Shown here: piece by piece, positions 1,918 through 28,110 of the stretch
Position numbering within the stretch: position 1 is the stretch's first letter
Layout: every line of letters begins with the position of its first letter
Assembly: GCF_046317795.1 (NCBI RefSeq)
Contig: NZ_JBKCVI010000087.1
Location: 3,438 to 67,437 of the forward strand
DNA length: 64,000 nt
Source of the DNA: Flavobacterium sp.
Lineage (GTDB): Bacteria > Bacteroidota > Bacteroidia > Flavobacteriales > Flavobacteriaceae
Direction: 5' to 3'
Position numbers and translations under genes: made by a program
The notes under the pieces: model-generated
Seen by the model: the letters and a program-made list of their open reading frames with translations, nothing else
Told to the model about the DNA's origin: nothing
Databases searched by the model: none

Positions 1918-2904
1918 TTATGTAGACATAATGTCTGAAACTCTTAGTAATTCTCTATCAATTTCTGAATGTCCTTTAATAGCTTGTTCTAATGGTGTTA
2001 ACGCCACTTTGTCATTTACTATACCTACCATGAAATTTGATTTTCCTTCTAAGATAGATTCAACTGCTTTTACACCTAATCTACTGGCTAAAACCCTATC
2101 GTAACATGAAGGCGCACCTCCACGTTGCATGTGACCAAGCACGGAAACTCGAATATCATATTCAGGGAAATTTTCCTCAATATAATCTTTTAATTCAAAA
2201 ACATTTTTACCAATTTTATCTCCTTCGGCAATGACAACAATACTTGAAGATTTTCCTGATGCTTTACTTTTGCGAAGCGAATCTAAAAGGCGTTCTAATC
2301 CCAAATCTTCTTCAGGAATAAGAATTTCCTCTGCTCCAGCTCCAATACCAGCATTTAGCGCAATATGACCTGCATCACGACCCATTACTTCAACCAAAAA
2401 AAGGCGGTTGTGGGAACTAGCTGTGTCACGAATTTTATCGATGCATTCTACTACAGTGTTTAATGCCGTGTCAAATCCCAAAGTATGACTGGTTCCAAAA
2501 ATATCATTATCAATGGTTCCAGGAATTCCCATTACAGGATAATCATATTCATTATTAAAAATTTCTGCTCCAGTAAAAGAACCATCACCACCAATAACTC
2601 CGAGTGCATCGACTCCTGCAGCAACTAAATTTTGATGTGCTTTTTGTCTGCCTTCTATGGTCATAAATTCTTTGGAACGAGCCGACTTTAAAATGGTTCC
2701 GCCTTTGTTGACGATATTGTTAACACTTCTTGGACCCATTTCTTTGAAATCGCCTTCAATCATTCCTTGATAACCTCTGTATATTCCAATACATTCTATA
2801 TTGTGGTAGGCGCAAGTTCTAACTACTGAACGAATGGCTGCGTTCATTCCTGGAGAATCACCTCCTGAAGTTAAAACTCCAATCTTTTTTATAGTTTTTG
2901 ACAT
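1918..2904 (-). CDS. pfkA: 6-phosphofructokinase
   Basis: LTSGGDSPGMN, GGDGS, TIDND, EVMGR, GHMQRGG motifs. Confidence 0.97.
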   Translation of the reverse strand: MSKTIKKIGVLTSGGDSPGMNAAIRSVVRTCAYHNIECIGIYRGYQGMIEGDFKEMGPRSVNNIVNKGGTILKSARSKEFMTIEGRQKAHQNLVAAGVDALGVIGGDGSFTGAEIFNNEYDYPVMGIPGTIDNDIFGTSHTLGFDTALNTVVECIDKIRDTASSHNRLFLVEVMGRDAGHIALNAGIGAGAEEILIPEEDLGLERLLDSLRKSKASGKSSSIVVIAEGDKIGKNVFELKDYIEENFPEYDIRVSVLGHMQRGGAPSCYDRVLASRLGVKAVESILEGKSNFMVGIVNDKVALTPLEQAIKGHSEIDRELLRVSDIMST

Positions 2905-3045
2905 TTTTCAGCTATTTAATCGTAAAATTAGCAAACGAGAAGCAGTTTTTTATAGATATCATCGAGATGTTATTATATGGAGCAAAATTCAATCGTTTTC
3001 GTTGATAAGTTTTGAAAAAAAGATTAAATTTAAAGGAATTCTATA

Positions 3046-6000
3046 TTAATCCTCAACTGGGATACCTTCTCTATTTGGTGATGGGTTTTCTATATCATTA
3101 TTCTTATCCTTGTCCTTATCTTTCTTTTCTGTATTTGGTAAATCTATATTTTCTATATCAGAATCGTGCAAATCATCACTTTTGTTTGTAGTCACTTTAT
3201 CAATTTTTGCATTTTTAAAGATTTTGTTTATCAACTCTTTTAAAGTATCAAAATCAACTTCATAAGAAATACCAACTCCTTGTGTGTATCCAATTCCCTG
3301 ACCGATGTAGGTTATATCATTTTCTTTATTAAAAAATCTCAAATTCAACGTACCATCTTCATTTACTCTATATTGCACTTCAACATCACCTACTATGGCA
3401 GTTTCTGTAATTCCACCAACGGGAACACCAACTTTGCCGTTTACTGTAATTCTGTCGTTAATCTTGGAAGAGACAGAAACACCAAATCGCGCATCGGTTT
3501 GAAAATCTGGATTATTACTATTATCTCCCGTTACATATTCAATTCCTAATTGAAGTTTATCATCTTCTCCAGCAAACAAATCGTTAAACATACTGCTTGC
3601 CTTTTCAAATAAATTATTGGATAATTGATTTTGGCTTACTCCATCTTGACTCAAAAAACCTCCAGTAGAGAGTAAATACAGCGCTTGTATTTGTCTTGTG
3701 TCTTTATCATCAAGTTTGTATTGCAATTCAGATCTAAGTGAACTACCAACGTTGGGAAAATTAATAGTAAAATCGGGTTCTGGATTTGTTAAACTTCCTT
3801 TTACATCTATAACAACTTCAACGTCTACTTTTTTATTAAAGGATGGATTATCAATTAATACTGCTGGGTTTGCGCCACCCATCACTTTATAAACTGCAGC
3901 TAAGTTGAGCGTTGCGGCTAATGGGTCACCATTCCAAACTATGTAACTCCCCTTTTTTACATCAAATTTTTTGTCAATTAGTCCGCCGTATTTAAAATTA
4001 TAAGAACCTTCGGTAGCAGAAAAATCTCCAAACATTTCAAATTTCCCCGACGTATTTATTCTAAATAATAATGTGCCATTTCCTTTCCCTTTCATGGCAT
4101 GTCCAGATTCTCTATCTAAAATTACTTCAACGTTTGCATTATTGTTTATTGTAAAATTAAAATCCAATTCCAACCCATCATAATTTCGGTTTTCGGTTAT
4201 CTTGTTCTTTTTCTTATTTAACTTTTCGGCTGGAGTTAAAAAATGCAGATAGTTATTGTCATCACTAGCAACTGCGTCATTTATAGGTATTTTAATTTCG
4301 GTTCCTTTTGCAGATTCACCGTTAACGGTTATCATCAAAGCGCTTGTTGGGCCTTTTATATTGGCCGAACCATTAAAAAATGCATCTCCATAAAAAGCAG
4401 CACCTTCATAATCTACTGTGTTTAATGCTAATAGTCGGTTAGAGTTTATAGATAAATCCAATTGCCAGTCTTCAAATTGTTTGTGTTTTATTATGCCGCT
4501 TAAAGTTCCTTTTGTATCGAATTTTGTATCTGAAATAGAAGTTTCTCTAATAATAAACTTATTTTCGGTAATATCTACAATGGTATTATCGATAAACTTG
4601 TAATCGGTATTGAGATAAGGAATTGTTAATCCTGCATCATTTACAAATAATCTACCGTTGTAATCTAATTGTTCTACGTTTCCTTCAATTCTAGCATTTC
4701 CGGATACAAAACCACGAATATTAGTAATAACATCGCCACCAATTTTCCCTAAAATTCCTAAATTGAAATTATCAAAACTGAAATCAAGATCTAATAATGT
4801 CTGACTGTTTACAATTTCAATATTTCCACTTGCTTTAAATGTCTCTACATTTTTATTGTCTAATGATGAATTGACATAAAACTTCCTTAGTGATTCATCT
4901 CCAGAGATATCTAAATTTAAGTCGCCATATTCAACATCATTAACATGCAAATTGCCTATGTTTAAGGTGGATGTGGGCTGAAAAACAGTGCTACTTTGTT
5001 TAAAATTAATTTTTCCATTTAGATTACCATCAAACTTAAATTTTTCCACATCGGGTGTGATTTTATTTAAATTTACATTTTCAAAGGTGAGTTGCAAATC
5101 TTTTGAATTATTGCCATTAATGGTTCCCGATAAATTAATATTTTGATTTTCATGAGATAAAATAATATTTTCAAACGAAAAATTACTCAACTTCTTATCA
5201 AAAACTATTTTGTTATTTTCTTCATCCTCTTTTTCGTTTAAATACCAGAGATAATCTTTGAATTGCATCTCTGATTTTTTGAAACCTACCACATTTTTAT
5301 TTTGTTTATTGATAGTGTGGTACAAATTCAAATTGTAAAAATCAAGTCCTTGCTTACCTCCTTTAAATTCAGTTCTAAAATATAAGGTGTCCTTTGAAAT
5401 AGTATTAATTCAACTAAAATCTCTAAATTTATATTGCTTTGTTTTAATAGAGTCCATTTGAATAAACGTATTATACAACGGATTTTGGTTGTCTACTTTT
5501 AACAAAATGTTATCCATTTCATTATCAGAAAATTTAATTTTAGGCGAGTTAAAAGTCAATTTAAAATCTTTTGCCTCTGAACTTATATTTCCTTTCAAAA
5601 TAGTGTTTGTGGCTATCGAAATATCAGGATAAAATATTTCGATAATCTTACTGAATATTGTAAAATTGAATTTTATATATTGACCACTTCTAACTTTATT
5701 GGGTTTGTAATTAGTATATAAACTTCCCAGTGAATTCTCCACTACTTTGAGTAACTGATTGAACTGAAATTTCCCAACCACACTTCCTTCAATCGCATCA
5801 TCAGATGTTATAGTGATAGTTCGCTCTCTTTTTTCATCAAAAACAGAATTAACATTTAAAAAATCAACATAATAAGTGTCTTTTTTGTTTTGGTAAGAGG
5901 CGTTTGTTAGGACAACATCACCTATCATGTTATCGATAGAATTTCCATTGGCTTTTATGGTCAAATCTCCTTTAAAAATTGAGATGGAATCAGTAATAAA

Positions 6001-15864: not shown

Positions 15865-16185
15865 TTATTCTTCAATAGAAAAAGCAACATCGCCTTTCCA
15901 GTTCATAAATCCTCCCTCGAGATTGAAAGTGTGCTCAAAACCCATTTCATTCATTATTTGACAAGCTTGAGCACTTCTGCTTCCTGCCTTGCAATACACG
16001 TAATAATTCTTGGATTTATCCAACTCTTCAACTGCATGTATAAATCCTTGTCCTTTGTAAATATCAATATTTATAGCACTAGGAATTATACCATCGCTGC
16101 ACTCGTCTGGCGTTCTAACATCCAAAACTACCGAGTTCGTATCTCTTTCTAATCTTGATTTCCAATCTTGTTGTGATAAATTCAT
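15865..16185 (-). CDS. Rhodanese-like domain protein
   Basis: LDVRTPDE and active-site YCKAGSRS. Confidence 0.9.
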   Translation of the reverse strand: MNLSQQDWKSRLERDTNSVVLDVRTPDECSDGIIPSAINIDIYKGQGFIHAVEELDKSKNYYVYCKAGSRSAQACQIMNEMGFEHTFNLEGGFMNWKGDVAFSIEE

Positions 16186-16294
16186 TTTCTATTTTTTTTG
16201 AGAAACAAATATAACGATTTTACTAGTTTAAATTGGATTGGTCATGCCTCAAAATAGCATCTTTTAAAAGATTAACAAAAAAATAACATAACAC

Positions 16295-16336
16295 TTGTAT
16301 ATACAAATAAAAAACTATTTACATTTGTATCTACAA
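16295..16336. promoter_or_regulatory. Two TTGTA-N2-TACAA palindromes flanking/overlapping a TACATTTG -7 box (16320-16327); putative MarR operators
   Basis: TTGTATATACAA (16295-16306) and TTGTATCTACAA (16325-16336) directly upstream of marR. Confidence 0.55.
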
Positions 16337-16343
16337 CTATTGT

Positions 16344-16811
16344 ATGGTTATAATGAAAATTGAAGAAATAATAAAATCAAACATAACATTAAAGGATGCT
16401 AAAAAAGTAATTCTTAACATTTTGTATACTCAAAATGTTATCAATGATAAGTTTAATGAGATTTTAAAACCTAATGATTTATCGAGTGAGCAATACAATG
16501 TATTAAGAATTCTTCGTGGTCAAAAAGGTTCTCCTGCTAACATGTGTGTGATACAAGAGCGAATGCTTGCTAAAAATAGTAACACTACCCGATTGATTGA
16601 CAAACTATTGCTTAAAAAGTATGTAACGAGAGAAGTTTGCCCAAATAATAGGAGGAAAATTGAAGTATTAATTACCCAAAAAGGGCTAGATATTCTTACC
16701 GACTTAGATCCAAAAGTTGAAGAACACGAACATTTTTTTGCAGCTAATTTAGAAGCAGAAGAGCTGGAGAAATTAAACTATTTACTAGAAAAATATAGAA
16801 ACATAAAATAA
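16344..16811 (+). CDS. MarR family transcriptional regulator (start may be 16353)
   Basis: LSSEQYNVLRILRG, TTRLIDKL...REVCPNNRR...ITQKG winged-HTH signature. Confidence 0.9.
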   Translation: MVIMKIEEIIKSNITLKDAKKVILNILYTQNVINDKFNEILKPNDLSSEQYNVLRILRGQKGSPANMCVIQERMLAKNSNTTRLIDKLLLKKYVTREVCPNNRRKIEVLITQKGLDILTDLDPKVEEHEHFFAANLEAEELEKLNYLLEKYRNIK

Positions 16812-20431: not shown

Positions 20432-21859
20432 ATGGAAGAATGCATCTCCGTTTTTGATATGCTAAAAATAGGTGTCGGACCATCAAGTTCCCATACTCTC
20501 GGACCATGGCGAGCCGCAGAACGTTTTCTCAACGAACTAAAAGCAGAAAACCTGTTAGACAAAACTACCAAAGTAAAAATTGATTTATACGGTTCGCTTT
20601 CCCTCACCGGAAAAGGACATGCTACAGATTATGCTGTGATGCTTGGACTGAGTGGTCAAGACCCAGAATACATTCCAGTAAAAAATATTGATAATATTGT
20701 ACAAACCATAAAAAAAACACATCAAATCAAATTAGCTAACGAACTAATGATACCATTTGATGCTGAAACCGATATTGTTTTCAATAAAAACTTTTTGCCG
20801 TTTCATGCTAATGGGTTGACTTTTACAGCTTATTTGATGGATGTTACAGAATATACCTCTACCTTCTACTCTATCGGTGGCGGATTTGTAGTCAAAGAAG
20901 AAAGGGTGAATGCCAAAAAGAAACTAGTCATAAAATGCGCCTTTCCTTTTCTTGTTGAAAATGCCGCTGATTTGCTGCAATATGCTATAACTGAGAATAA
21001 ATTAATCTCGGAGATTGTATATGCCAATGAAATCTCCATGCGTCCCGAAGCCGAGGTGCATAACGAACTAATTCGTATTTGGGAAACCATGCTCGAATGT
21101 ATGTATATCGGTTGTCACTCCGAAGGTATTTTGCCTGGTGGTTTAAATGTAAGACGACGCGCTTTTGATATGCATCAAGGTTTGATTGGTTTAGCCAATT
21201 ATACCAATCCACAAGAATGGTTAGAAACTATTCGAAAAACAGAAGTGAAGTTTAGACAAATTTTAAAATGGGTTTCCTGTTTTGCCTTAGCAGTAAACGA
21301 AGTTAATGCTGCATTGGGAAGAGTAGTCACTGCTCCGACTAATGGAAGTGCAGGTGTGATACCAGCCGTTCTAATGTATTATTTAGTAATTGAAAATCAT
21401 CAAGCTGGAGAAAAAGAAATAAAACAATTCTTGATGGTAGCGGGTGAAATTGGAAGTATCTTTAAAAAAGGTTCTACCATATCGGCTGCTATGGGTGGCT
21501 GTCAGGCAGAAATTGGCGTTTCGTCTGCTATGGCTGCTGCTGCACTTTGTGAAGTTATGGGTGGCACACCAGAACAAGTTTTAATGGCTGCCGAAATCGC
21601 TATGGAACATCACTTAGGGCTAACCTGCGACCCGATTGGCGGTTTGGTTCAAATTCCGTGTATAGAACGAAATACTATGGGAGCTATCAAAGCCATTAAC
21701 GCGGCAGAACTCGCCATGGAAACTGATGCTAAAAATGCCAAAGTACCATTGGATAAAGTAATTGATACGATGTGGCAAACGGCAAAAGACATGAACTCTA
21801 AATACAAAGAAACCTCCGAAGGCGGATTGGCTGTGGCGGTGAATATGGCGGATTGTTAA
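20432..21859 (+). CDS. sdaA: L-serine ammonia-lyase (Fe-S dependent)
   Basis: IGVGPSSSHT, APTNGSAG, GGCQAEIG, EHHLGLTCDP, PCIERN, ETSEGGLA. Confidence 0.96.
   Translation: MEECISVFDMLKIGVGPSSSHTLGPWRAAERFLNELKAENLLDKTTKVKIDLYGSLSLTGKGHATDYAVMLGLSGQDPEYIPVKNIDNIVQTIKKTHQIKLANELMIPFDAETDIVFNKNFLPFHANGLTFTAYLMDVTEYTSTFYSIGGGFVVKEERVNAKKKLVIKCAFPFLVENAADLLQYAITENKLISEIVYANEISMRPEAEVHNELIRIWETMLECMYIGCHSEGILPGGLNVRRRAFDMHQGLIGLANYTNPQEWLETIRKTEVKFRQILKWVSCFALAVNEVNAALGRVVTAPTNGSAGVIPAVLMYYLVIENHQAGEKEIKQFLMVAGEIGSIFKKGSTISAAMGGCQAEIGVSSAMAAAALCEVMGGTPEQVLMAAEIAMEHHLGLTCDPIGGLVQIPCIERNTMGAIKAINAAELAMETDAKNAKVPLDKVIDTMWQTAKDMNSKYKETSEGGLAVAVNMADC
21841..21858 (+). repeat. 18-bp direct repeat, left copy (3' end of sdaA)
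   Basis: GAATATGGCGGATTGTTA, identical to 25303-25320. Confidence 0.9.
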
Positions 21860-21920
21860 TTTGTTGCTAAACCACCCAAAAGCTTCGTTTTAAATCTGAT
21901 TTTAAAGTGAATAAAAAAAG

Positions 21921-22046
21921 TGCAAAGTCAGGTTCCGATAACTATCTGAATTGTGCAGCTTTTATAGAACTCTTTGTGGAGTTGGCATAATAATTTTTGA
22001 GAAAGAAAAATGTGAATTTTGCGCATTTTTCGGCATTTCTTGAAAC
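21921..22046. repeat. Inter-cassette repeat A1 (chimera: 21921-21984 matches A4, 21953-22046 matches A2)
   Basis: Core GTGCAGCTTTTATAGAACTCTTTGTGGAG at 21953-21981; 58/64 identical to 24414-24477; 89/94 identical to 22786-22879. Confidence 0.92.
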
Positions 22047-22051
22047 GGCTA

Positions 22052-22357
22052 TTATGCAACGTTTTTTTCTTTTCTGATACTATTAATTCTATTTACTTCG
22101 CTTTGTTTTTCAATCAATTCATTTTCTATATCATAGTCATCTTGAATACCCAACCAAAATTTTGCCGAGTTTCCGAAATATGCACTCAATCTTACAGCAG
22201 TATCAGCAGAAATTCTTCTGTTACCTTTAATTATTTCAGAAATCCTTGTTTGCGGAATATCTAAGTCTTTAGAAAGTCTGTATTGCGTAATTTGTAAAGG
22301 AATTAAAAATTCTTCTAATAAAATTTCTCCAGGTGTTATGTTTTTTAGCTTTTCCAT
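22052..22357 (-). CDS. higA: HigA family antitoxin (HTH)
   Basis: ITPGEILLEEFL...TQYRL...RISEIIKGNRRISADTA..L..YFG..A.FWL..Q. Confidence 0.92.
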   Translation of the reverse strand: MEKLKNITPGEILLEEFLIPLQITQYRLSKDLDIPQTRISEIIKGNRRISADTAVRLSAYFGNSAKFWLGIQDDYDIENELIEKQSEVNRINSIRKEKNVA

Positions 22358-22369
22358 TTTTCTATATTT

Positions 22370-22651
22370 TTAATGATAATCTATAATTCCAACTTCTAAA
22401 GCATTACCGTTATCCCATTTAAAAATAATTCTCCATTGGTTATTTATTCTTATACTGTTAAATTCTTTCAAATTGCCTTTTAGTTTTTCTAGTCTATTTG
22501 CTGGAGGAATCCTTAAATCGCTAACATCAATTGAGTTATTAATCATTCTCAATTTTCTTCTCGCCGTATCTTGAATTTCTCTAGGAAGTTTCTTTGACAC
22601 AATTCCATTCCAAATTTTTTCAGTTTCTTTATCTTTAAATGAAACAATCAT
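22370..22651 (-). CDS. higB: HigB family toxin (RelE superfamily, killer protein type)
   Basis: MIVSFKDKETEKIW...ARRKL...LRIPPANRLEKLKG...SIRINNQWRIIF..VGIIDYH; lies upstream of higA. Confidence 0.92.
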   Translation of the reverse strand: MIVSFKDKETEKIWNGIVSKKLPREIQDTARRKLRMINNSIDVSDLRIPPANRLEKLKGNLKEFNSIRINNQWRIIFKWDNGNALEVGIIDYH

Positions 22652-22671
22652 ACTCTTTTCGATACTAACGT

Positions 22672-22679
22672 CAAAGATA
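22672..22679 (-). promoter_or_regulatory. -7 box (TATCTTTG) for higBA
   Basis: Plus-strand CAAAGATA about 20 nt upstream of the higB start. Confidence 0.6.
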
Positions 22680-22726
22680 AGTATTCATTTGATAAGTTTT
22701 CATATAAACAGGATTTTTTCGAAAAT

Positions 22727-22890
22727 GTTGCATAACTTGTATATAGGTCTGAGACATTTACTTCGTCCGTTCGCTTTGCTTGGGTGCGCAGCTTTTATAG
22801 AACTCTTTGTAAAGCTGGGATAATAATTTTTGAGAAAGAAAAATGTGAATTTTGCGCATTTTTCGGCATTTCTTGAAACTGCTGTAAGCC
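22727..22890 (-). repeat. Inter-cassette repeat A2 / chimeric attC-like site (GGCTTAC ... GTTATGC on minus strand)
   Basis: Core at 22786-22814; 60-bp block 22820-22879 identical to 21987-22046; ends in integron-like core GTTATGCAAC (22736-22727). Confidence 0.8.
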
Positions 22891-22897
22891 GAAGTAG

Positions 22898-23188
22898 CTA
22901 TAATTCGATTTGAATTTTCACTTTTCCTCCTAACCCTTTTTCCACTATATCATACAAAGTTTTGAGAGTCAAATTACTTCCGTTATTTTCTATTTTGGAA
23001 ATATATTCTCTTTTCTTGTCCACTAAATTCCCAAGCTCAGTTTGAGTTAGGTGTTTTTCTTCACGAGCTTTTTTTAAGAGTAAACCAATTTTAAAACCTT
23101 GGAATTCTCTTTCAAGTTCGTCACGTCTTTCGGTTCCTATTTCACCGTAAACATTATTTTTAATTTCTTTCCAGCTTTTAGTTTCCAT
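22898..23188 (-). CDS. XRE/HTH antitoxin of RelE/Gp49-type TA pair
   Basis: KIGLLLKKAREEKHLTQTELG..V...REYISKIEN; adjacent to a toxin fragment. Confidence 0.85.
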   Translation of the reverse strand: METKSWKEIKNNVYGEIGTERRDELEREFQGFKIGLLLKKAREEKHLTQTELGNLVDKKREYISKIENNGSNLTLKTLYDIVEKGLGGKVKIQIEL

Positions 23189-23190
23189 AG

Positions 23191-23327
23191 TTATTTAGAT
23201 TTTTTTTCTGTGTAATATTTAGTCATTAATTTCAATGCTTTTTCCATTTCATTTTTCGGTGTCTTCTGCGTTTTCTTTTGAAACCCATTTAAAAGAATGA
23301 CAAGTTTTCCGTGGTCAAAAAAGCAAA
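23191..23327 (-). pseudogene. 5'-truncated RelE/ParE (Gp49-like) toxin
   Basis: C-terminal CFFDHGKLVILLNGFQKKTQKTPKNEMEKALKL typical of Gp49-like toxins; the upstream part is replaced by repeat A3. Confidence 0.8.
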
Positions 23328-23365
23328 GAGACATTTGCGCAGCTTTTATAGAACTCTTTGTGGAG
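23328..23365. repeat. Inter-cassette repeat A3
   Basis: GAGACATTT + GCGCAGCTTTTATAGAACTCTTTGTGGAG; equals A2 minus the 26 bp at 22760-22785. Confidence 0.9.
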
Positions 23366-23414
23366 CAGGGCAAACATATCAAGGGGATTTATTTGAGGAC
23401 AAGGATATTTAAAC

Positions 23415-23440
23415 AAAAAAGCCCCAGTTAAGGGGCTTTT
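23415..23440 (-). terminator. Intrinsic terminator after 23448..23750
   Basis: AAAAAAGCCCC-agtta-AGGGGCTTTT hairpin with A/T tracts on both sides. Confidence 0.75.
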
Positions 23441-23447
23441 ATTATTT

Positions 23448-23750
23448 TTAATGTGGAACGAAATGACCTCCCTCTTTCCAATCTCTATTTTCCTCATACC
23501 AATCCAACAATTCTCGCATAAATCCCCAAACTATAGCAGTTCCTGTGGCTTGCATAAAATTTACTTGTGGTTCATCATATTTATCATCTTCAAATTCTCT
23601 TATCACAATTCTGCGTTTATGGAGAGGTTTATGACCAGTAATTATGTATGCGTGAGACCTACCGATCTTAAAATATCCGTTTGGCTCAAGTACTTGTTTA
23701 GCTCTTATCTGTTCATCGATAAAGCTAATGTCTACTGTGGGATGTGACAT
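23448..23750 (-). CDS. Hypothetical protein, weakly HicA-like
   Basis: TAA-ATG coupled to upstream ORF and followed by a terminator; VLEPNGYFKIGRSH resembles the HicA GSH motif. Confidence 0.55.
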   Translation of the reverse strand: MSHPTVDISFIDEQIRAKQVLEPNGYFKIGRSHAYIITGHKPLHKRRIVIREFEDDKYDEPQVNFMQATGTAIVWGFMRELLDWYEENRDWKEGGHFVPH

Positions 23751-24128
23751 TTAACAGGTTAATTCAAGTGTTTCAACAAATTTGTCACCTGTTTCCATAA
23801 TTTGGTCAAATATTACATTCGAAGTGTTGAATGACATTATTACAGACCCTTTATCTTCTGATATAAATTCCCAACCTAATAACCTTAGTTCAGTTTCCAA
23901 TCCGCTACCGAATTTTTCACTTGTTACACAAAAAAGATTTACACACTCTTTAATGGCTTCTTGGGCATCTAACTCATCTTTAGCAAAGGTCTTAATACCT
24001 AAAAAAGGAATGTTAACCGACATAAATTCATCCTCAACAATTTTATCCCATATAGGCATATCAATTGTTATAGAAGATAGCTTTCCATCAAGTCTATTAA
24101 TTTCAATATTTGCTTCAGTAAATTTCAC
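23751..24128 (-). CDS. Hypothetical protein, HicB-like N-terminal pattern
   Basis: SVNIPFLGIKTFAKDELDAQEAIKECVNLF resembles HicB 'P.LpG..T.G.t.eEA...ikEai.l'; GTG start uncertain. Confidence 0.6.
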   Translation of the reverse strand: MKFTEANIEINRLDGKLSSITIDMPIWDKIVEDEFMSVNIPFLGIKTFAKDELDAQEAIKECVNLFCVTSEKFGSGLETELRLLGWEFISEDKGSVIMSFNTSNVIFDQIMETGDKFVETLELTC

Positions 24129-24413
24129 TTGGAGTAATTTTCATTGGTTTTTTTGATATTACAAATGTATAAACAAAACATTAAATTTAATTTTTTTAGT
24201 CTATTAAAATACAAATAATATCGATGAAATGTAATTTTGCTTATTTTTTGTAATATTTAGTTTAATATTAAATACAAAGTTATTAACAAACTATATTAAT
24301 AAGTTATAAAATTCCGTTAAATTTTTACATAATTGTTGTTTTAAAAATTTATAACAAAACATATATTCGATATATAAACGTAAAAAGTTACAATTTATTA
24401 TATTTGCTTACCC

Positions 24414-24477
24414 TGCAAAGTCCGGTTCCGATAGCCATCGGAATTGCGCAGCTTTTATAGAATTCTTTGTGGAGTTG
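24414..24477. repeat. Inter-cassette repeat A4
   Basis: Core at 24446-24474; 58/64 identical to 21921-21984; contains CCGATAGCCATCGG palindrome. Confidence 0.92.
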
Positions 24478-24478
24478 T

Positions 24479-25060
24479 TTATTTTATTTCAAGTTTCTCC
24501 CAAATGCCCTCGTCCTTGAGTTGCTTAATTAAGTCCGAGAGTTTCTGTTTTTTATTGAGAGTAACATAGTTTGTTCGCTTATCGTCAGTTTTGAAGCATA
24601 TATTTTTATCACAAAAAATACGTTTCAAAACTGAAGTCCTTTTATCAGTTTTTGAAGTCTTAATAAAATATTCAGTTGTTACAGTCCCAATTGTATCGGT
24701 TTCTTTTTCCCAGTTATAGTTTTTCTCAACCATCAAACTGTCATAGGTAAGAACTACAATATCATTCTTAATTTTATATTTCCCTTTGTAATACCAATCG
24801 TCCGATTCACAAACGTCTATGGTCAAAAAGTCATTGTCATTAAGAAATAAAAGACTACCAGAACAACAATCGCATTCTCCAAATGCTTCGCAAGTATTCT
24901 TGTCAAGTTCTGGTGCATAAAAATAAACTTGTCCAGATAAGTTTAGTGCTATATACTTTGCTAGGGTTATTTTTTTAACGGTTTTGTTTGTAGTTGGTTC
25001 ATTGCAAGAATGAAGTGCTAATATAATAAAGAAAAATATTAATTTAATTAGGTTTTTCAT
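24479..25060 (-). CDS. Hypothetical Cys-rich lipoprotein (cassette cargo)
   Basis: Lipobox LHSC; CEAFGECDCC cluster; stop codon abuts repeat A4. Confidence 0.75.
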   Translation of the reverse strand: MKNLIKLIFFFIILALHSCNEPTTNKTVKKITLAKYIALNLSGQVYFYAPELDKNTCEAFGECDCCSGSLLFLNDNDFLTIDVCESDDWYYKGKYKIKNDIVVLTYDSLMVEKNYNWEKETDTIGTVTTEYFIKTSKTDKRTSVLKRIFCDKNICFKTDDKRTNYVTLNKKQKLSDLIKQLKDEGIWEKLEIK

Positions 25061-25103
25061 TATGCTTCAATTTGTTGTTTCTAGGACGGTCGGACGCCAT
25101 CCA

Positions 25104-25165
25104 TTACGGCTAACGTTTCCTTGCTAGAGCCCCACTGCGCAATTCCGAAAGCTATCGGAATTGAG
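25104..25165 (-). repeat. attC-like right arm ending in core GTTAGCC (25114-25108) plus palindrome CAATTCCGAAAGCTATCGGAATTG (25140-25163)
   Basis: GTTRRRY-type core 48 nt upstream of the lipoprotein start codon. Confidence 0.55.
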
Positions 25166-25302
25166 GAGTAGCGCAATGAGTTTTTTTTTAACTGTCGCTT
25201 CAAATATAATCAAAATCACCATGCAACTTTATTGCCAGCTAAAAAAACTAGTGGGTTTGTGATTGCTCTCGAACGTGGGTATAGTTTACAAATCCGCTAT
25301 CG

Positions 25303-25320
25303 GAATATGGCGGATTGTTA
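25303..25320 (+). repeat. 18-bp direct repeat, right copy (overlaps porin stop codon)
   Basis: GAATATGGCGGATTGTTA, identical to 21841-21858. Confidence 0.9.
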
Positions 25321-26370
25321 GAATTCAAAAGACAAACTAGACGTTATAAAAAAGTTATTGTTAACAGGGATTTCATCTTTTGAGAATACTTTTTCTTGGC
25401 TGTTTAAATACCGTGCTTCGGTTCTCAATTTTACTTTAGAATTAAAAAGATAATCTATATTTAAAGACGTACCGAGTGTTTTAAATTCATCATTTATAGC
25501 AATAATAACAGCATCTTTATCCTGATAATACTCGGCTCGGAAAGCCGTTTGCCATTTGGGTGCCAACGTATATTGCATTATTAACACGGGACTCATCCAA
25601 TATAATTTGTTGTTATTATTTGTTACATCAGTTTGCATTCCTGCATCAAAACCAATAATAGTTCGCCACTTGGAATTCCATTTATTGTCCCAATACAAAT
25701 TACTAAAATAACGCATTCCCCATTGGTCATTATACCATTCTTTGCCCATAAAAGTGCTCCAATTAAACAATGAATTTGTAGATGGTTTATAGATAATCTG
25801 TGAACCAAAAGCAGGTCCAACATTCTTATCGGGTTTGTTGATGCGTTGCCATCCATTGGTTAGTAAACCAGAGAAAGTCCATTTTTCATTAGCAGTAAAA
25901 GTATACTTTATACCTGTCATAAAATAAGGAGAATTATCGGCTAATAACGAACGGGTTAAGGTTACATTTGAAGAATTGTTTGCGGTTTCAAATCCTATAT
26001 AACTTGGTAAAATTCCCAACTCTATGGTTGACTTTTTTGCTTTATCGAGATACAAACCCACATAAGCTTCATTAATGATTTTAGTGGTTTCGTTAGCATA
26101 ATTATCTTCTACATAGGTTCCAGCTTGTAGCGCCAATACTGCATAAGCATTATCATATTCTGCTTTAGCTCTTAGTAGCCCGATGTTTACATTAAACTCG
26201 TTATGCCGGTTATAATTGTACATAAACGGAAGTTTTTGTTCGGAATTTGGCGTATTGAAATCATAGCTGTAATAGGTTTCTAAAAATCCCGAAAAGGATA
26301 GTTTTAGGTCTTTATTTTCTTGAGCAAAAGCAGAAAATCCAATGCAAAAAATTATTATAAAACGCTTCAT
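25318..26370 (-). CDS. Outer-membrane beta-barrel porin (OmpL-like/DUF1597 type)
   Basis: Signal peptide, YYSYDFN, SYIGFE, PYFMTG, GWQRI, terminal aromatic residue (SFEF). Confidence 0.8.
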   Translation of the reverse strand: MKRFIIIFCIGFSAFAQENKDLKLSFSGFLETYYSYDFNTPNSEQKLPFMYNYNRHNEFNVNIGLLRAKAEYDNAYAVLALQAGTYVEDNYANETTKIINEAYVGLYLDKAKKSTIELGILPSYIGFETANNSSNVTLTRSLLADNSPYFMTGIKYTFTANEKWTFSGLLTNGWQRINKPDKNVGPAFGSQIIYKPSTNSLFNWSTFMGKEWYNDQWGMRYFSNLYWDNKWNSKWRTIIGFDAGMQTDVTNNNNKLYWMSPVLIMQYTLAPKWQTAFRAEYYQDKDAVIIAINDEFKTLGTSLNIDYLFNSKVKLRTEARYLNSQEKVFSKDEIPVNNNFFITSSLSFEF

Positions 26371-26801
26371 TACTTCCTTCTAGTATCTATGAGGTGTATT
26401 ATTTTCCAAGTAGTTACCTCAAAATACAAGGTGAAAGCGTTAACACCTTTATGGCTTAACTTTCCATTGACATAAAATTCATAAGGTGTCCAAACGTGTG
26501 CCATCGATCCATCAACTTGGATGTTGTAGCTCAGTATTCTTTCTTCAAATTTAATATCGGCAGGAATGGAAGCGATAGATTTGTAAAACGCTGCTGGTTT
26601 CTCATCAGAAAGTTTATTCCCTTTGGTGTTTTCCGAAATTGATTGCAAAATCATGGTGCTACTGCAAGTCGATTTGATTTTGATGGTGTCTTTGGTATGA
26701 AACCCTTCGAAGAAAGTCTCAATAGTTTTTTGCACTTGCTCCTTTTGTGCATTGACAATTCCAACACATAATAAAACGACTACTAGCAGTATTTTTTTCA
26801 T
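26370..26801 (-). CDS. NTF2-like / lumazine-binding family secreted protein
   Basis: MKKILLVVVLL signal; FEERIL..IQVDGSMAHVWTPYEFY..SHKGVNAF; start 26801 preferred. Confidence 0.8.
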   Translation of the reverse strand: MKKILLVVVLLCVGIVNAQKEQVQKTIETFFEGFHTKDTIKIKSTCSSTMILQSISENTKGNKLSDEKPAAFYKSIASIPADIKFEERILSYNIQVDGSMAHVWTPYEFYVNGKLSHKGVNAFTLYFEVTTWKIIHLIDTRRK

Positions 26802-26805
26802 ATTG

Positions 26806-28110
26806 CTAATATTTAGACCATTTGTAGAGTTCTTTCCATGTTGGTTTTTTGCCATACATTAAAATTCCAACTCGATAGATTTTGGCAGCAAACCAAACTA
26901 CCCCAAAGAATGTAGCGAATAACAACACCATGGAAACGATGATTTGCCACAGCGGAACACCAAACGGAATTCGCATCATCATTACGATGGGTGAGGTCAA
27001 TGGTATCATAGAGAAAACTGTTGCTACCGTTCCGTGAGGGTCATTCATTACGGTAAAAAACCCAATATAAACACCTAATATCAAAGGCATGATAATAGGT
27101 AACAAGAATTGTTGCGAGTCGGTTTCGTTATCCACTGCAGCACCAATAGAAGCATAAAACGAGCTGTATAAGAAATAACCACCAATAAAATAAATGACAA
27201 ACGAAATGAGTATAGTAGCTATGGGCAAGTTCCAAAGTTCTTTAATGTAAAGTTGGATGGTTCCTCCCATTTCACTTTGTGCCGTTTGCATGGCTTGTCC
27301 TTGAATACCCGAAGTTGCACCCATTTGCACACCAAAAATGGAAGACAATACAAACATGGCGGTTAACCCGAGGATTGCCCAAATGAAAAACTGCAAAATT
27401 CCAGCCAATGACGTGCCAATTATTTTTCCCATCATCAATTGAAATGGTTTTACTGAGGAGATTATGACTTCAATAATTCGAGATACTTTTTCTTCGATAA
27501 CGCTACGCATGACCATATTACCATAAATTACAATAAACATCATAATGAGGTAACCAAAAGCACCACCAATAGCGATTTTGATTTCGTTTAACCCTTTTAA
27601 AGCTGCTTCACCTGATGCTTTGGTGAGTTTGATGTCAACGGCAGCATTGGCATTTTTAATCGCTAACGTATCTAAACCCGATTTGATATAGTTTTCTTGC
27701 GTGAGCTTTTCGGCTACAATGTCTTCGATATCGTCAATAAACATGACACTCGGGCTGTCATTGGAAATATATTGAATACTTTTTTCGAGCGCTTTGTTAT
27801 CGGTTACTTTTGGGATGACTAAAAGGCCTTCATAACTTTCGCTGACAATGCTATCTTTTAGAGTTTTGGTGTTAACCGATGATAAATCAACATATTTATA
27901 TTCGTCATCACTTTTAAATTCTTGGGCAAACAAACCCGTTTCATCATGAATAGCAATGGTTTTTAAATCGGCTTTCATAGCACTTAAATAGCCCACAAAA
28001 ACAGCAATACCTACAAACAATAACGGACTTAAAAAAGTCATTACAATAAATGATTTATTGCGCACTTTGGCGATAAATTCTCTTTTGATAATCAAACTTA
28101 ATTTACTCAT
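26806..28110 (-). CDS. ABC-2 type exporter permease (NatB-like)
   Basis: IIKREF..KVRNKSF, VIEEKVSRIIEVIISSV.PFQLMMGKI; start 28110 preferred. Confidence 0.88.
   Translation of the reverse strand: MSKLSLIIKREFIAKVRNKSFIVMTFLSPLLFVGIAVFVGYLSAMKADLKTIAIHDETGLFAQEFKSDDEYKYVDLSSVNTKTLKDSIVSESYEGLLVIPKVTDNKALEKSIQYISNDSPSVMFIDDIEDIVAEKLTQENYIKSGLDTLAIKNANAAVDIKLTKASGEAALKGLNEIKIAIGGAFGYLIMMFIVIYGNMVMRSVIEEKVSRIIEVIISSVKPFQLMMGKIIGTSLAGILQFFIWAILGLTAMFVLSSIFGVQMGATSGIQGQAMQTAQSEMGGTIQLYIKELWNLPIATILISFVIYFIGGYFLYSSFYASIGAAVDNETDSQQFLLPIIMPLILGVYIGFFTVMNDPHGTVATVFSMIPLTSPIVMMMRIPFGVPLWQIIVSMVLLFATFFGVVWFAAKIYRVGILMYGKKPTWKELYKWSKY

Follow-up and report, generated by a model that had tools for sequence, protein, structure and literature searches.

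Positions 21860-25302 of the 64,000-nucleotide stretch of Flavobacterium DNA analysed here (the window; its contig of 80 kb belongs to a metagenome-assembled genome, MAG, of 2.73 Mb, 224 contigs and 33% G+C) probably hold a recombinase-less, partly decayed satellite array of a Flavobacterium integron-like cassette system, the equivalent of the clusters of attC sites lacking integrases (CALINs) of the integron world. The array lies between sdaA and a porin gene and contains a higBA toxin-antitoxin (TA) pair, a second and broken TA pair, a two-gene module and a lipoprotein gene. Its content turns over in a natural population, by insertion at integron-type G|TT junctions (the bar marks the point of exchange) and by ordinary homologous recombination. 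A preliminary description made from the letters alone had proposed an integrase-free, co-oriented, integron-like cassette array at this position, and the proposal has largely held: no recombinase is encoded on the contig, and near-identical strains differ in array content.

The system is characterised by a site of ~140 nt, here called the E-site, which follows each open reading frame (ORF) in recombinase-linked arrays and has the layout nnnnTAAC (the inverse core), AGCGGTTTCAAGAAATGGCG, ~80 nt, CGCCACTTCATGAAGCCGCG, AAAC and G|TTAnnnn. In the array of locus L055, a 2.9-Mb contig on which a recombinase gene is followed by six co-oriented ORFans with intergenic repeats homologous to a 60-bp block of the window, the opening TTAnnnn of a cassette and the nnnnTAAC of the same cassette are complementary (e.g. 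CCAGTAAC / GTTACTGG). The arm pairing was set by hand and then scored by pair counts over 16 sites with 21 pairs each; 76.9% of the cells are paired, compared with 26-44% when the arms are slid, a score by which the hand-set pairing is somewhat favoured because it was derived from one of the tested sequences. Compensatory changes occur in 14/21 arm pairs, which 0/500 shuffles matched. A hidden Markov model (HMM) of the E-site, trained without the window copies, was run on eight recombinase loci from different Flavobacterium genomes and gave 50 matches, all co-oriented and each right after an ORF; matches are present at 7/8 loci, up to 14 in a row, while the whole 2.7-Mb genome that contains the window has 19. 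The L055 locus also carries five tandem units of ~318 nt (L055:12497-13430 and 16104-16721), each an E-site plus spacer with no ORF, which look like empty cassettes or an amplified small non-coding cassette.

The genome of the window encodes five tyrosine recombinases, one of which, a 580-aa protein on the short contig C111, is neither XerC, XerD nor a phage-type integrase. The C-terminal half of this enzyme has the integron integrase family TIGR02249 as its best NCBIfam match (217 bits, below the cut-off of 265), and its best match in the PDB is VchIntIA (2A3V, 9e-42). The alignment with 2A3V is split in two, IntI4 residues 180-246 (67) facing only 25 aa, and that with XerA (5HXY) runs from end to end; judged from these alignments the enzyme is without the IntI-specific insertion. 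Right after the recombinase stop codon the sequence reads ..AATGTTGCATAACCTTGCGTGTATTTACTAG|TTATAGCC.., and the same motifs bound higBA in the window; this attI-like sequence is conserved between C111 and L055. The family of this enzyme is common in Flavobacterium, with 967 matches, of which the best 120 are 62-99% identical and ~580 aa long. Among 41 genomes of the genus the long form is found in two, and a short form (~350 aa, 40-44% identical to the C-terminal half) in 20. C111 ends at the first cassette behind the attI-like site, as do most metagenome contigs with this gene, which is often on very short contigs. On contig C3 of the same genome, an integrase of 414 aa that differs from the C111 enzyme and is truncated by the contig end (C3:1-1269) precedes two co-oriented E-site matches (2444-3101), and this may be a second recombinase-linked cluster.

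In the window, the most conspicuous repeat is a 29-mer, GCGCAGCTTTTATAGAACTCTTTGTGGAG, with four plus-strand copies at 21953 (A1), 22786 (A2), 23337 (A3) and 24446 (A4) that have 1, 2, 0 and 1 mismatches, respectively; the expectation by chance is none (0 in 100 shuffles). Each copy sits 3' of a minus-strand gene unit, and all intervening genes are on the minus strand; the arrangement given in the preliminary description is correct. A search with up to 3 mismatches returned only these four copies in the 2.73-Mb genome and none in the 400 further family genomes searched, which include members of the same genus; the genome- and family-wide search that had been suggested thus confines the repeat to this locus, which is not what the end of an insertion sequence (IS) or miniature inverted-repeat transposable element (MITE) would look like. 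The larger E-site family is dispersed (the 19 HMM matches) but co-oriented with genes and linked to recombinases. The mosaic of shared flanks described earlier is confirmed for two pairs of copies: a segment of 99 nt (94% identity) is common to A1 and A2 and consists of the 29-mer and the 60-bp block (21987-22046 / 22820-22879), and one of 64 nt (91% identity) is common to A1 and A4 and consists of the 29-mer and a left flank with the hairpin TTCCGATAnCnATCnGAA. The claim that A3 equals A2 minus 26 bp is not confirmed, as A3 has only ~35 nt in common with the other copies. Diverged relatives of the 60-bp block are present at other places in the genome, in each case immediately 3' of a gene and in the orientation of that gene. 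Rfam has no family that fits the repeats, either in the window or at three loci of its own genome.

The 29-mer had been taken for a recombination site. It folds into a weak 5-bp hairpin only and is missing from the recombinase-linked arrays and from every other genome examined; the demonstrable site-specific junctions are the G|TT cores at 21941|21942 and 22735|22736. The 29-mer marks unit ends and is in all likelihood not the crossover site; it can most simply be read as a locally homogenised loop segment of the sites of this array, as in sedentary chromosomal integrons, and would now act mainly as a substrate for homologous recombination rather than as a crossover core. Two of the four sites retain more than the 29-mer: the E-site HMM matches A1 and A2 over their 5' halves. 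The higBA pair obeys the core/inverse-core rule of the recombinase-linked arrays, since TTATGCAAC (22727-22735) at its start is complementary at 9/9 positions to the inverse core GTTGCATAA (22052-22060) and the E-site alignment places the two in canonical register; the sequence 5' of the cut, its left junction, resembles the attI-like site behind the recombinase gene (TATTTACTAG|TTA).

The array is caught in several states in lake metagenome contigs, which were located by a 22-nt core of the 29-mer and then by protein look-ups (HigB, the helix-turn-helix (HTH) protein and the lipoprotein). The core had 0 matches in a scan of the genome collection and six in metagenomes, five of them relevant; the sixth, L016, is a chance match within a high-GC ABC-transporter gene. 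The look-ups gave dozens more contigs, which are 97-99.8% identical to the window and come from numerous samples; exact-protein look-ups of the window's lipoprotein and of the C111 recombinase had no matches, and near-identical versions of both did. Variant V1 (the window, L030 and L031) has all units. V2, the commonest (L017, L018, L045-L054), lacks higBA and the HTH unit, and V3 (L036) lacks higBA alone. In V4 (L020, L024, L026) higBA is joined to other genes, and V5 (L019, L021-L029) is like V4 with, in addition, the gene for an 853-aa leucine-rich repeat (LRR) protein of the type IX secretion system (T9SS) kind between sdaA and higBA. Cassette content is therefore not invariant between strains, in keeping with the preliminary description. 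Each variant recurs in independent samples, which argues against assembly chimeras as their source.

The LRR cassette of V5 is 2.7 kb long and, compared with the window and with L020, is inserted exactly at 21941|21942 inside the hairpin of A1. Its junctions read ..CAGATAG|TTGGCAGAC..ORF..TCTGCCAAC-arm..GGCAAAACG|TTATCGG; the cassette start TTGGCAGAC is complementary at 9/9 positions to its own inverse core TCTGCCAAC, and the cassette ends in an intact E-site (E 3e-23). The only sequence common to both junctions is GTT (3 bp), and together with the perfect core pair this indicates a site-specific event, not homologous recombination. The deletions have another origin. At the joint of V2 lies a hybrid A1/A3 29-mer with identical private single-nucleotide polymorphisms (SNPs) in different samples (L017 and L018, two metagenomes), whereas the deletion in V3 (A1 x A2) crossed over inside the identical 60-bp block, where the longest identical tract is 66 bp, and not in the 29-mer. 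Recombination through the repeats, as previously suggested, hence applies to A1 x A3, while for A1 x A2 the exchange moved to the neighbouring block. An apparent breakpoint of L014 in the 29-mer proved to be an allelic variant of the site and not a crossover.

On the porin side, extra units of 108/97, 174, 188 or 211 aa are present in L018, L030 and L045, always with the left breakpoint at 25090|25091. The lipoprotein unit also occurs at a second locus, behind uvrA and beside DMP19- and SUKH-type genes (L015, L051). In L021, from the same sample as L051, higBA is joined to an M28 peptidase gene, the neighbour of uvrA in the MAG, where the genes for UvrA and the M28/T9SS peptidase are 6 bp apart (C139:1853-4237); junctions on the M28 peptidase side are found in L014 and L020-L029. 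These reciprocal junctions in one sample would fit a large chromosomal inversion between the sdaA array and the uvrA/M28 cassette locus.

The mechanism that we propose from these observations runs as follows. Elsewhere, a Xer/IntI-like tyrosine recombinase without the IntI insertion heads a co-oriented array in which each cassette closes with an E-site (inverse core, ~20-nt arm, ~80-nt loop, complementary arm, G|TTAnnnn) and opens with a TTAnnnn complementary to its own inverse core. The C111 recombinase would act in trans on the array of the window, where higBA qualifies as a cassette by the core/inverse-core rule. A1 and A2 have kept the 5' arm of the E-site while their 3' arms degenerated, and A3 and A4 would be truncated copies of the 29-mer. 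Homologous recombination between the repeated boundary modules accounts for the exchanges between A1 and A3 in the 29-mer and between A1 and A2 in the 60-bp block, and for the uvrA/M28 rearrangement.

Several observations weigh against reading the region as a satellite cassette array. The sites of the window are degenerate: A1 retains 11/21 arm pairs and A2 9/21, the canonical 3' end lacks GTT, and an attC-like fold is absent, which agrees with the remark in the preliminary description that the sites do not fold as full attC palindromes; an imperfect inverted repeat with G|TT is a property of the E-site family and not of A1-A4. A3 and A4 have no E-site arm whatever. The 29-mer and the 3' halves of the sites go unrecognised by the E-site HMM, so the label of loop segment for the 29-mer hangs on a weak alignment. 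The core/inverse-core rule holds for the LRR, higBA and L055 units but fails for the DMP19, SUKH and 211-aa units. No tyrosine recombinase is encoded on the window's 80-kb contig, the A1 x A2 deletion in the 60-bp block needs no dedicated recombinase, and an 18-bp direct repeat that brackets the whole array is unexplained by integron-type insertion. Finally, the strain variants are known from metagenome assemblies and one MAG only. Also considered was a rule by which the short hairpin modules (an 18-nt palindrome between two 8-mers) would form a chain; it is true of the lipoprotein unit only and was dropped.

The same weaknesses feed the first alternative, that no dedicated system exists and that REP/MITE-like intergenic repeats (REP, repetitive extragenic palindrome) are merely shuffled by RecA-type recombination or slippage at a permissive hot spot behind sdaA. 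We consider this unlikely, yet it has a good deal to build on: the exchange behind the A1 x A2 deletion lies in the longest identical tract and outside the 29-mer, the genome has 25 scattered copies of the hairpin TCCCGATAGCTATCGGGA, E-like elements lie 3' of many genes, apparently including core ones, RNAalifold on the site alignments found essentially no consensus structure, the window sites are unpaired and the contig has no recombinase. It has no account of LRR junctions that share only 3 bp (GTT) and carry a perfect 9-nt core/inverse-core pair, a rule that higBA follows as well, nor of compensatory changes in the arms and of the strict co-orientation of E-sites and their stacking behind recombinase genes in 7/8 other genomes. 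The array does resemble REP and bacterial interspersed mosaic elements (BIMEs) with their REP-associated tyrosine transposases (RAYTs) in its short palindromic modules in 3' intergenic positions, their mosaic combinations and its rearrangement hot spots; it differs in that E-sites always follow the orientation of the genes and form stacks behind genes for tyrosine recombinases. A direct link was rejected, as the two RAYT-like Y1 transposase genes of the genome (C134:2688-3032 and C71:16210-16554) are flanked by different REPs: each has its own family of short GC-rich hairpin repeats in a REPtron-like arrangement, unrelated to the array repeats. The 25 genome sites of the 18-nt palindrome TCCCGATAGCTATCGGGA include C44:4359 and C154:48982; its TTCC..GGAA variant occurs only in the array, C160 and C83.

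A second alternative takes the region for the remnant of an integrase-borne island in the 3' end of sdaA, with the 18-bp repeat as att core and the internal repeats arising by tandem accretion of small elements. The exact repeat GAATATGGCGGATTGTTA at 21841-21858 and 25303-25320 has, by our own estimate, a chance expectation of ~5e-8, other members of the genus that carry the 18-mer have it only once, with no second copy nearby, and relatives lack the array: in G417 and G173 sdaA is directly followed by a homologue of window 26370-26855 with no array between. No integrase or other island backbone gene is present, however, the 29-mer is unrelated to the 18-mer, and E-site homology and G|TT junctions would go unexplained, which makes an island origin of the array as a whole very improbable. 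The idea is compatible with the satellite array as the route of its first arrival, and the 18-bp repeat together with relatives that lack the array suggests that this arrival was by att-type integration. The same-genus genomes are too distant for synteny comparison (41-43% identity for the porin), and loci L041-L044, around further 18-mer matches, are chance matches and irrelevant for synteny. The weakest alternative, that the 29-mer is itself the recombination site of a lineage-specific cassette system with exchange by crossover within it, can draw on four co-oriented copies with sharp borders and unrelated flanks on both sides and on the A1/A3 hybrid junction with its private SNPs in two metagenomes (L017, L018), but is scarcely tenable for a sequence that is present in no other genome or array examined, recombinase-linked arrays included, forms only a 5-bp hairpin and does not contain the other junctions, that of L014 being allelic.

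With the recombinase-less satellite array as the preferred reading, its closest known systems are chromosomal integrons with their CALINs, for which we rely on work from 2016 as summarised in PMC8618304, and rAID-1 of the Bacteroidales. Chromosomal integrons and CALINs share with the Flavobacterium system co-oriented cassettes of a single gene or a TA pair, an imperfect inverted repeat that closes each cassette, crossover at G|TT, array-specific homogenised sites, TA cargo, recombinase-less clusters elsewhere in the genome and strain-variable content; as in chromosomal integrons, the cassette start is complementary to its own inverse core and an attI-like site lies beside the recombinase gene. 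In contrast to integrons, the Flavobacterium recombinase has no IntI-specific insertion, has a ~290-aa N-terminal extension in its long form and is co-oriented with the cassettes, and the sites form a sequence family of their own (AGCGGTTTCAAGAAATGGCG ... CGCCACTTCATGAAGCCGCG AAAC G|TTA), decayed in the window. Recombination of sites folded from the single bottom strand, a trait of integrons, would be no more than conjecture for the Flavobacterium system. By analogy, with the system's own sites in place of attC, the window qualifies as a CALIN, having E-site halves at A1 and A2 on the minus strand, no integrase within the 80-kb contig and a third, intact site in the variants. By the integrase domain it does not belong to the integrons, as the contig has no recombinase and the C111 enzyme scores 217 bits where 265 are required. 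In its way of working the system is comparable to a sedentary chromosomal integron accompanied by a CALIN-type satellite, but fails membership by integrase domain.

The remark that no named Bacteroidota cassette system with this repeat is known has to be set beside rAID-1 (bioRxiv 10.1101/471110), a named system of the phylum. In these recombinase-associated acquired interbacterial defence clusters a XerD-family recombinase heads arrays of small genes with immunity cargo, separated by repetitive intergenic sequences 'reminiscent of integrons', and close recombinase homologues have been reported only in Bacteroidales (Ross et al. 2019). The Flavobacterium arrays have in common with rAID-1 the phylum, a XerD-family or Xer-like recombinase, repetitive intergenic sequences between small co-oriented ORFs, immunity-type cargo (DMP19 and SUKH in allelic arrays) and a G+C content slightly below that of the flanks. 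They differ in belonging to freshwater Flavobacteriales, in the window array having no recombinase beside it and in carrying TA modules and T9SS LRR proteins. This likeness is one of description. Our full-text literature searches returned no description of such a cassette system in Flavobacterium; according to a review, integrons have been detected in Bacteroidota as well as in other phyla.

The window features, together with the recombinase and attI-like site of C111, are listed below.

Table. Features of the array region in window coordinates, followed by the recombinase locus on contig C111
Feature	Position	Strand	Remarks
sdaA (L-serine dehydratase)	20432..21859	+	Pfam SDH_alpha + SDH_beta; core flanking gene, convergent with cassettes
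18-bp direct repeat, left copy	21841..21858	+	exact; final codons of sdaA
Site A1, decayed attC-like site of higBA cassette	21926..22063	-	E-site HMM 22054-21982, E 1.2e-9
A1 hairpin TTCCGATAACTATCTGAA	21933-21950
A1 crossover point TAG|TTA	21941..21942	-	2.7-kb LRR/T9SS cassette sits here in variant strains
A1 29-mer	21953-21981
A1 5' arm + 60-bp block	21982-22054
A1 inverse core GTTGCATAA	22052-22060		overlaps higA stop
higA	22052-22357	-	HTH antitoxin, HTH_3
higB	22370-22651	-	HigB-like_toxin, Pfam 1e-22
higB -7 box TATCTTTG	22672-22679		Bacteroidetes type
higBA 5' boundary ..TATATACAAG|TTATGCAAC	22727..22736	-	cut 22735|22736
Site A2	22736..22897	-	behind HTH gene; HMM match 22890-22816, E 6e-11
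A2 degenerate 3' arm	22756-22785
A2 29-mer	22786-22814
A2 E-site 5' half	22816-22890		includes 60-bp block 22820-22879
HTH_3 antitoxin	22898-23188	-	Pfam
Gp49/HigB-type toxin fragment	23191-23336	-	5'-truncated; Pfam
29-mer copy A3	23337..23365	+	abuts truncated toxin; no E-site arm
-7-like box TATGTTTG	23371-23378		beside A3
Terminator hairpin	23417-23440		beside A3
Two-gene module, 100 aa	23448-23750	-
Two-gene module, 125 aa	23751-24128	-
125-aa gene -7 box TACATTTG	24162-24169
Site A4	24414..24477	+	directly after lipoprotein stop; hairpin TTCCGATAGCCATCGGAA 24426-24443 + 29-mer 24446-24474; no E-site 5' arm
Lipoprotein cassette, 193 aa	24479..25060	-	no Pfam or PADLOC match
Recurrent variant breakpoint	25090|25091		porin side of lipoprotein unit
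Inverted-orientation hairpin module CTGCGCAA-TTCCGAAAGCTATCGGAA-TTGAGGAG	25135..25168	+	porin-proximal array end
Constant region	25170..25302	-	upstream array end, in all variants; -7 box TATATTTG 25201-25208
18-bp direct repeat, right copy	25303..25320	+	terminates on porin stop codon
BBP2/OmpL-like porin	25318..26370	-	flanking gene; Pfam BBP2 9e-77
Xer/IntI-like recombinase, 580 aa	C111:2675-4417		5-kb contig; ~290-aa N-terminal extension of unknown fold
attI-like site	C111:4418-4515		behind recombinase; first cassette (205 aa) follows and contig ends there

The cargo is typical of such cassette arrays: across the window and the allelic arrays it comprises TA pairs, lipoproteins, immunity-type proteins of the DMP19 and SUKH kinds and T9SS LRR proteins. 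The DMP19 match (3e-29) and a weak SUKH match are in the allelic arrays, and the window itself has TA modules, a lipoprotein and ORFans, at a G+C content of 23-35% compared with 33-42% in the flanks. The higBA pair is an intact type II TA cassette. In the second TA unit the toxin fragment covers profile positions 55-89 only and ends at A3; contig C184 of the same genome has a homologous pair that is intact and carries an E-site of its own, and a pseudo-site looked for at the truncation point showed no convincing similarity. The same contig holds a match to the Flavo-1 RNA (L006:6044-6110, 40 bits with a gathering score of 42, E 1.3e-5), which is unrelated to the repeats. The two-gene module had been called a hicBA-like pair. 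It is conserved as a two-gene module and adjoins mobile elements in other flavobacteria, and neither of its proteins has a Pfam or PADLOC match. The likeness survives faintly for the 125-aa protein, for whose model (pLDDT 86) the top Foldseek match is the HicB N-domain 6G1C (E 0.07, prob 0.91), and lapses for the 100-aa protein, which matches nothing, its model (pLDDT 87) having no structural match better than E 0.5.

Bacteroidetes -7 boxes (TAnnTTTG) stand at -28 of higB and at -41 of the 125-aa gene, and the lipoprotein gene has none nearby. The -7 box TATATTTG of the constant region (25201-25208, cassette strand) could serve as a Pc-like promoter, comparable to the cassette promoter of integrons, for whichever cassette comes first. 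The inverted hairpin module at 25135-25168, overlooked in the preliminary description, is shared with L030.

Integron surveys depend on the IntI-specific domain and on a proteobacterial attC model, and few integrons are reported in Bacteroidota; platforms with a recombinase devoid of that domain and with a site family of their own would be missed by them. Whether Flavobacterium, and with it probably other Bacteroidota, has an integron-type gene-capture lineage of its own, with an integrase that lacks the IntI insertion and in its long form has a ~290-aa N-terminal extension, distinct ~140-nt sites and in-trans action on satellites, is in our judgement evenly balanced. Within one population (97-99.8% identity) the array offers presence and absence of single cassettes with base-exact junctions, among them those of an insertion at a G|TT core of this recombinase-less array, a record unobtainable from genome comparison between species. 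The ageing of such arrays can be followed here too: site stems erode, toxins become fragments, and exchange passes to homologous recombination between homogenised segments of the sites. Arrays of this kind break metagenome assemblies and hold the TA, immunity-type and surface-protein genes by which co-existing strains differ. If such a lineage exists, the sampled lake population would document in nature the states before and after a cassette was captured at a secondary site, TAG|TTA, that lies within a decayed site beside sdaA.

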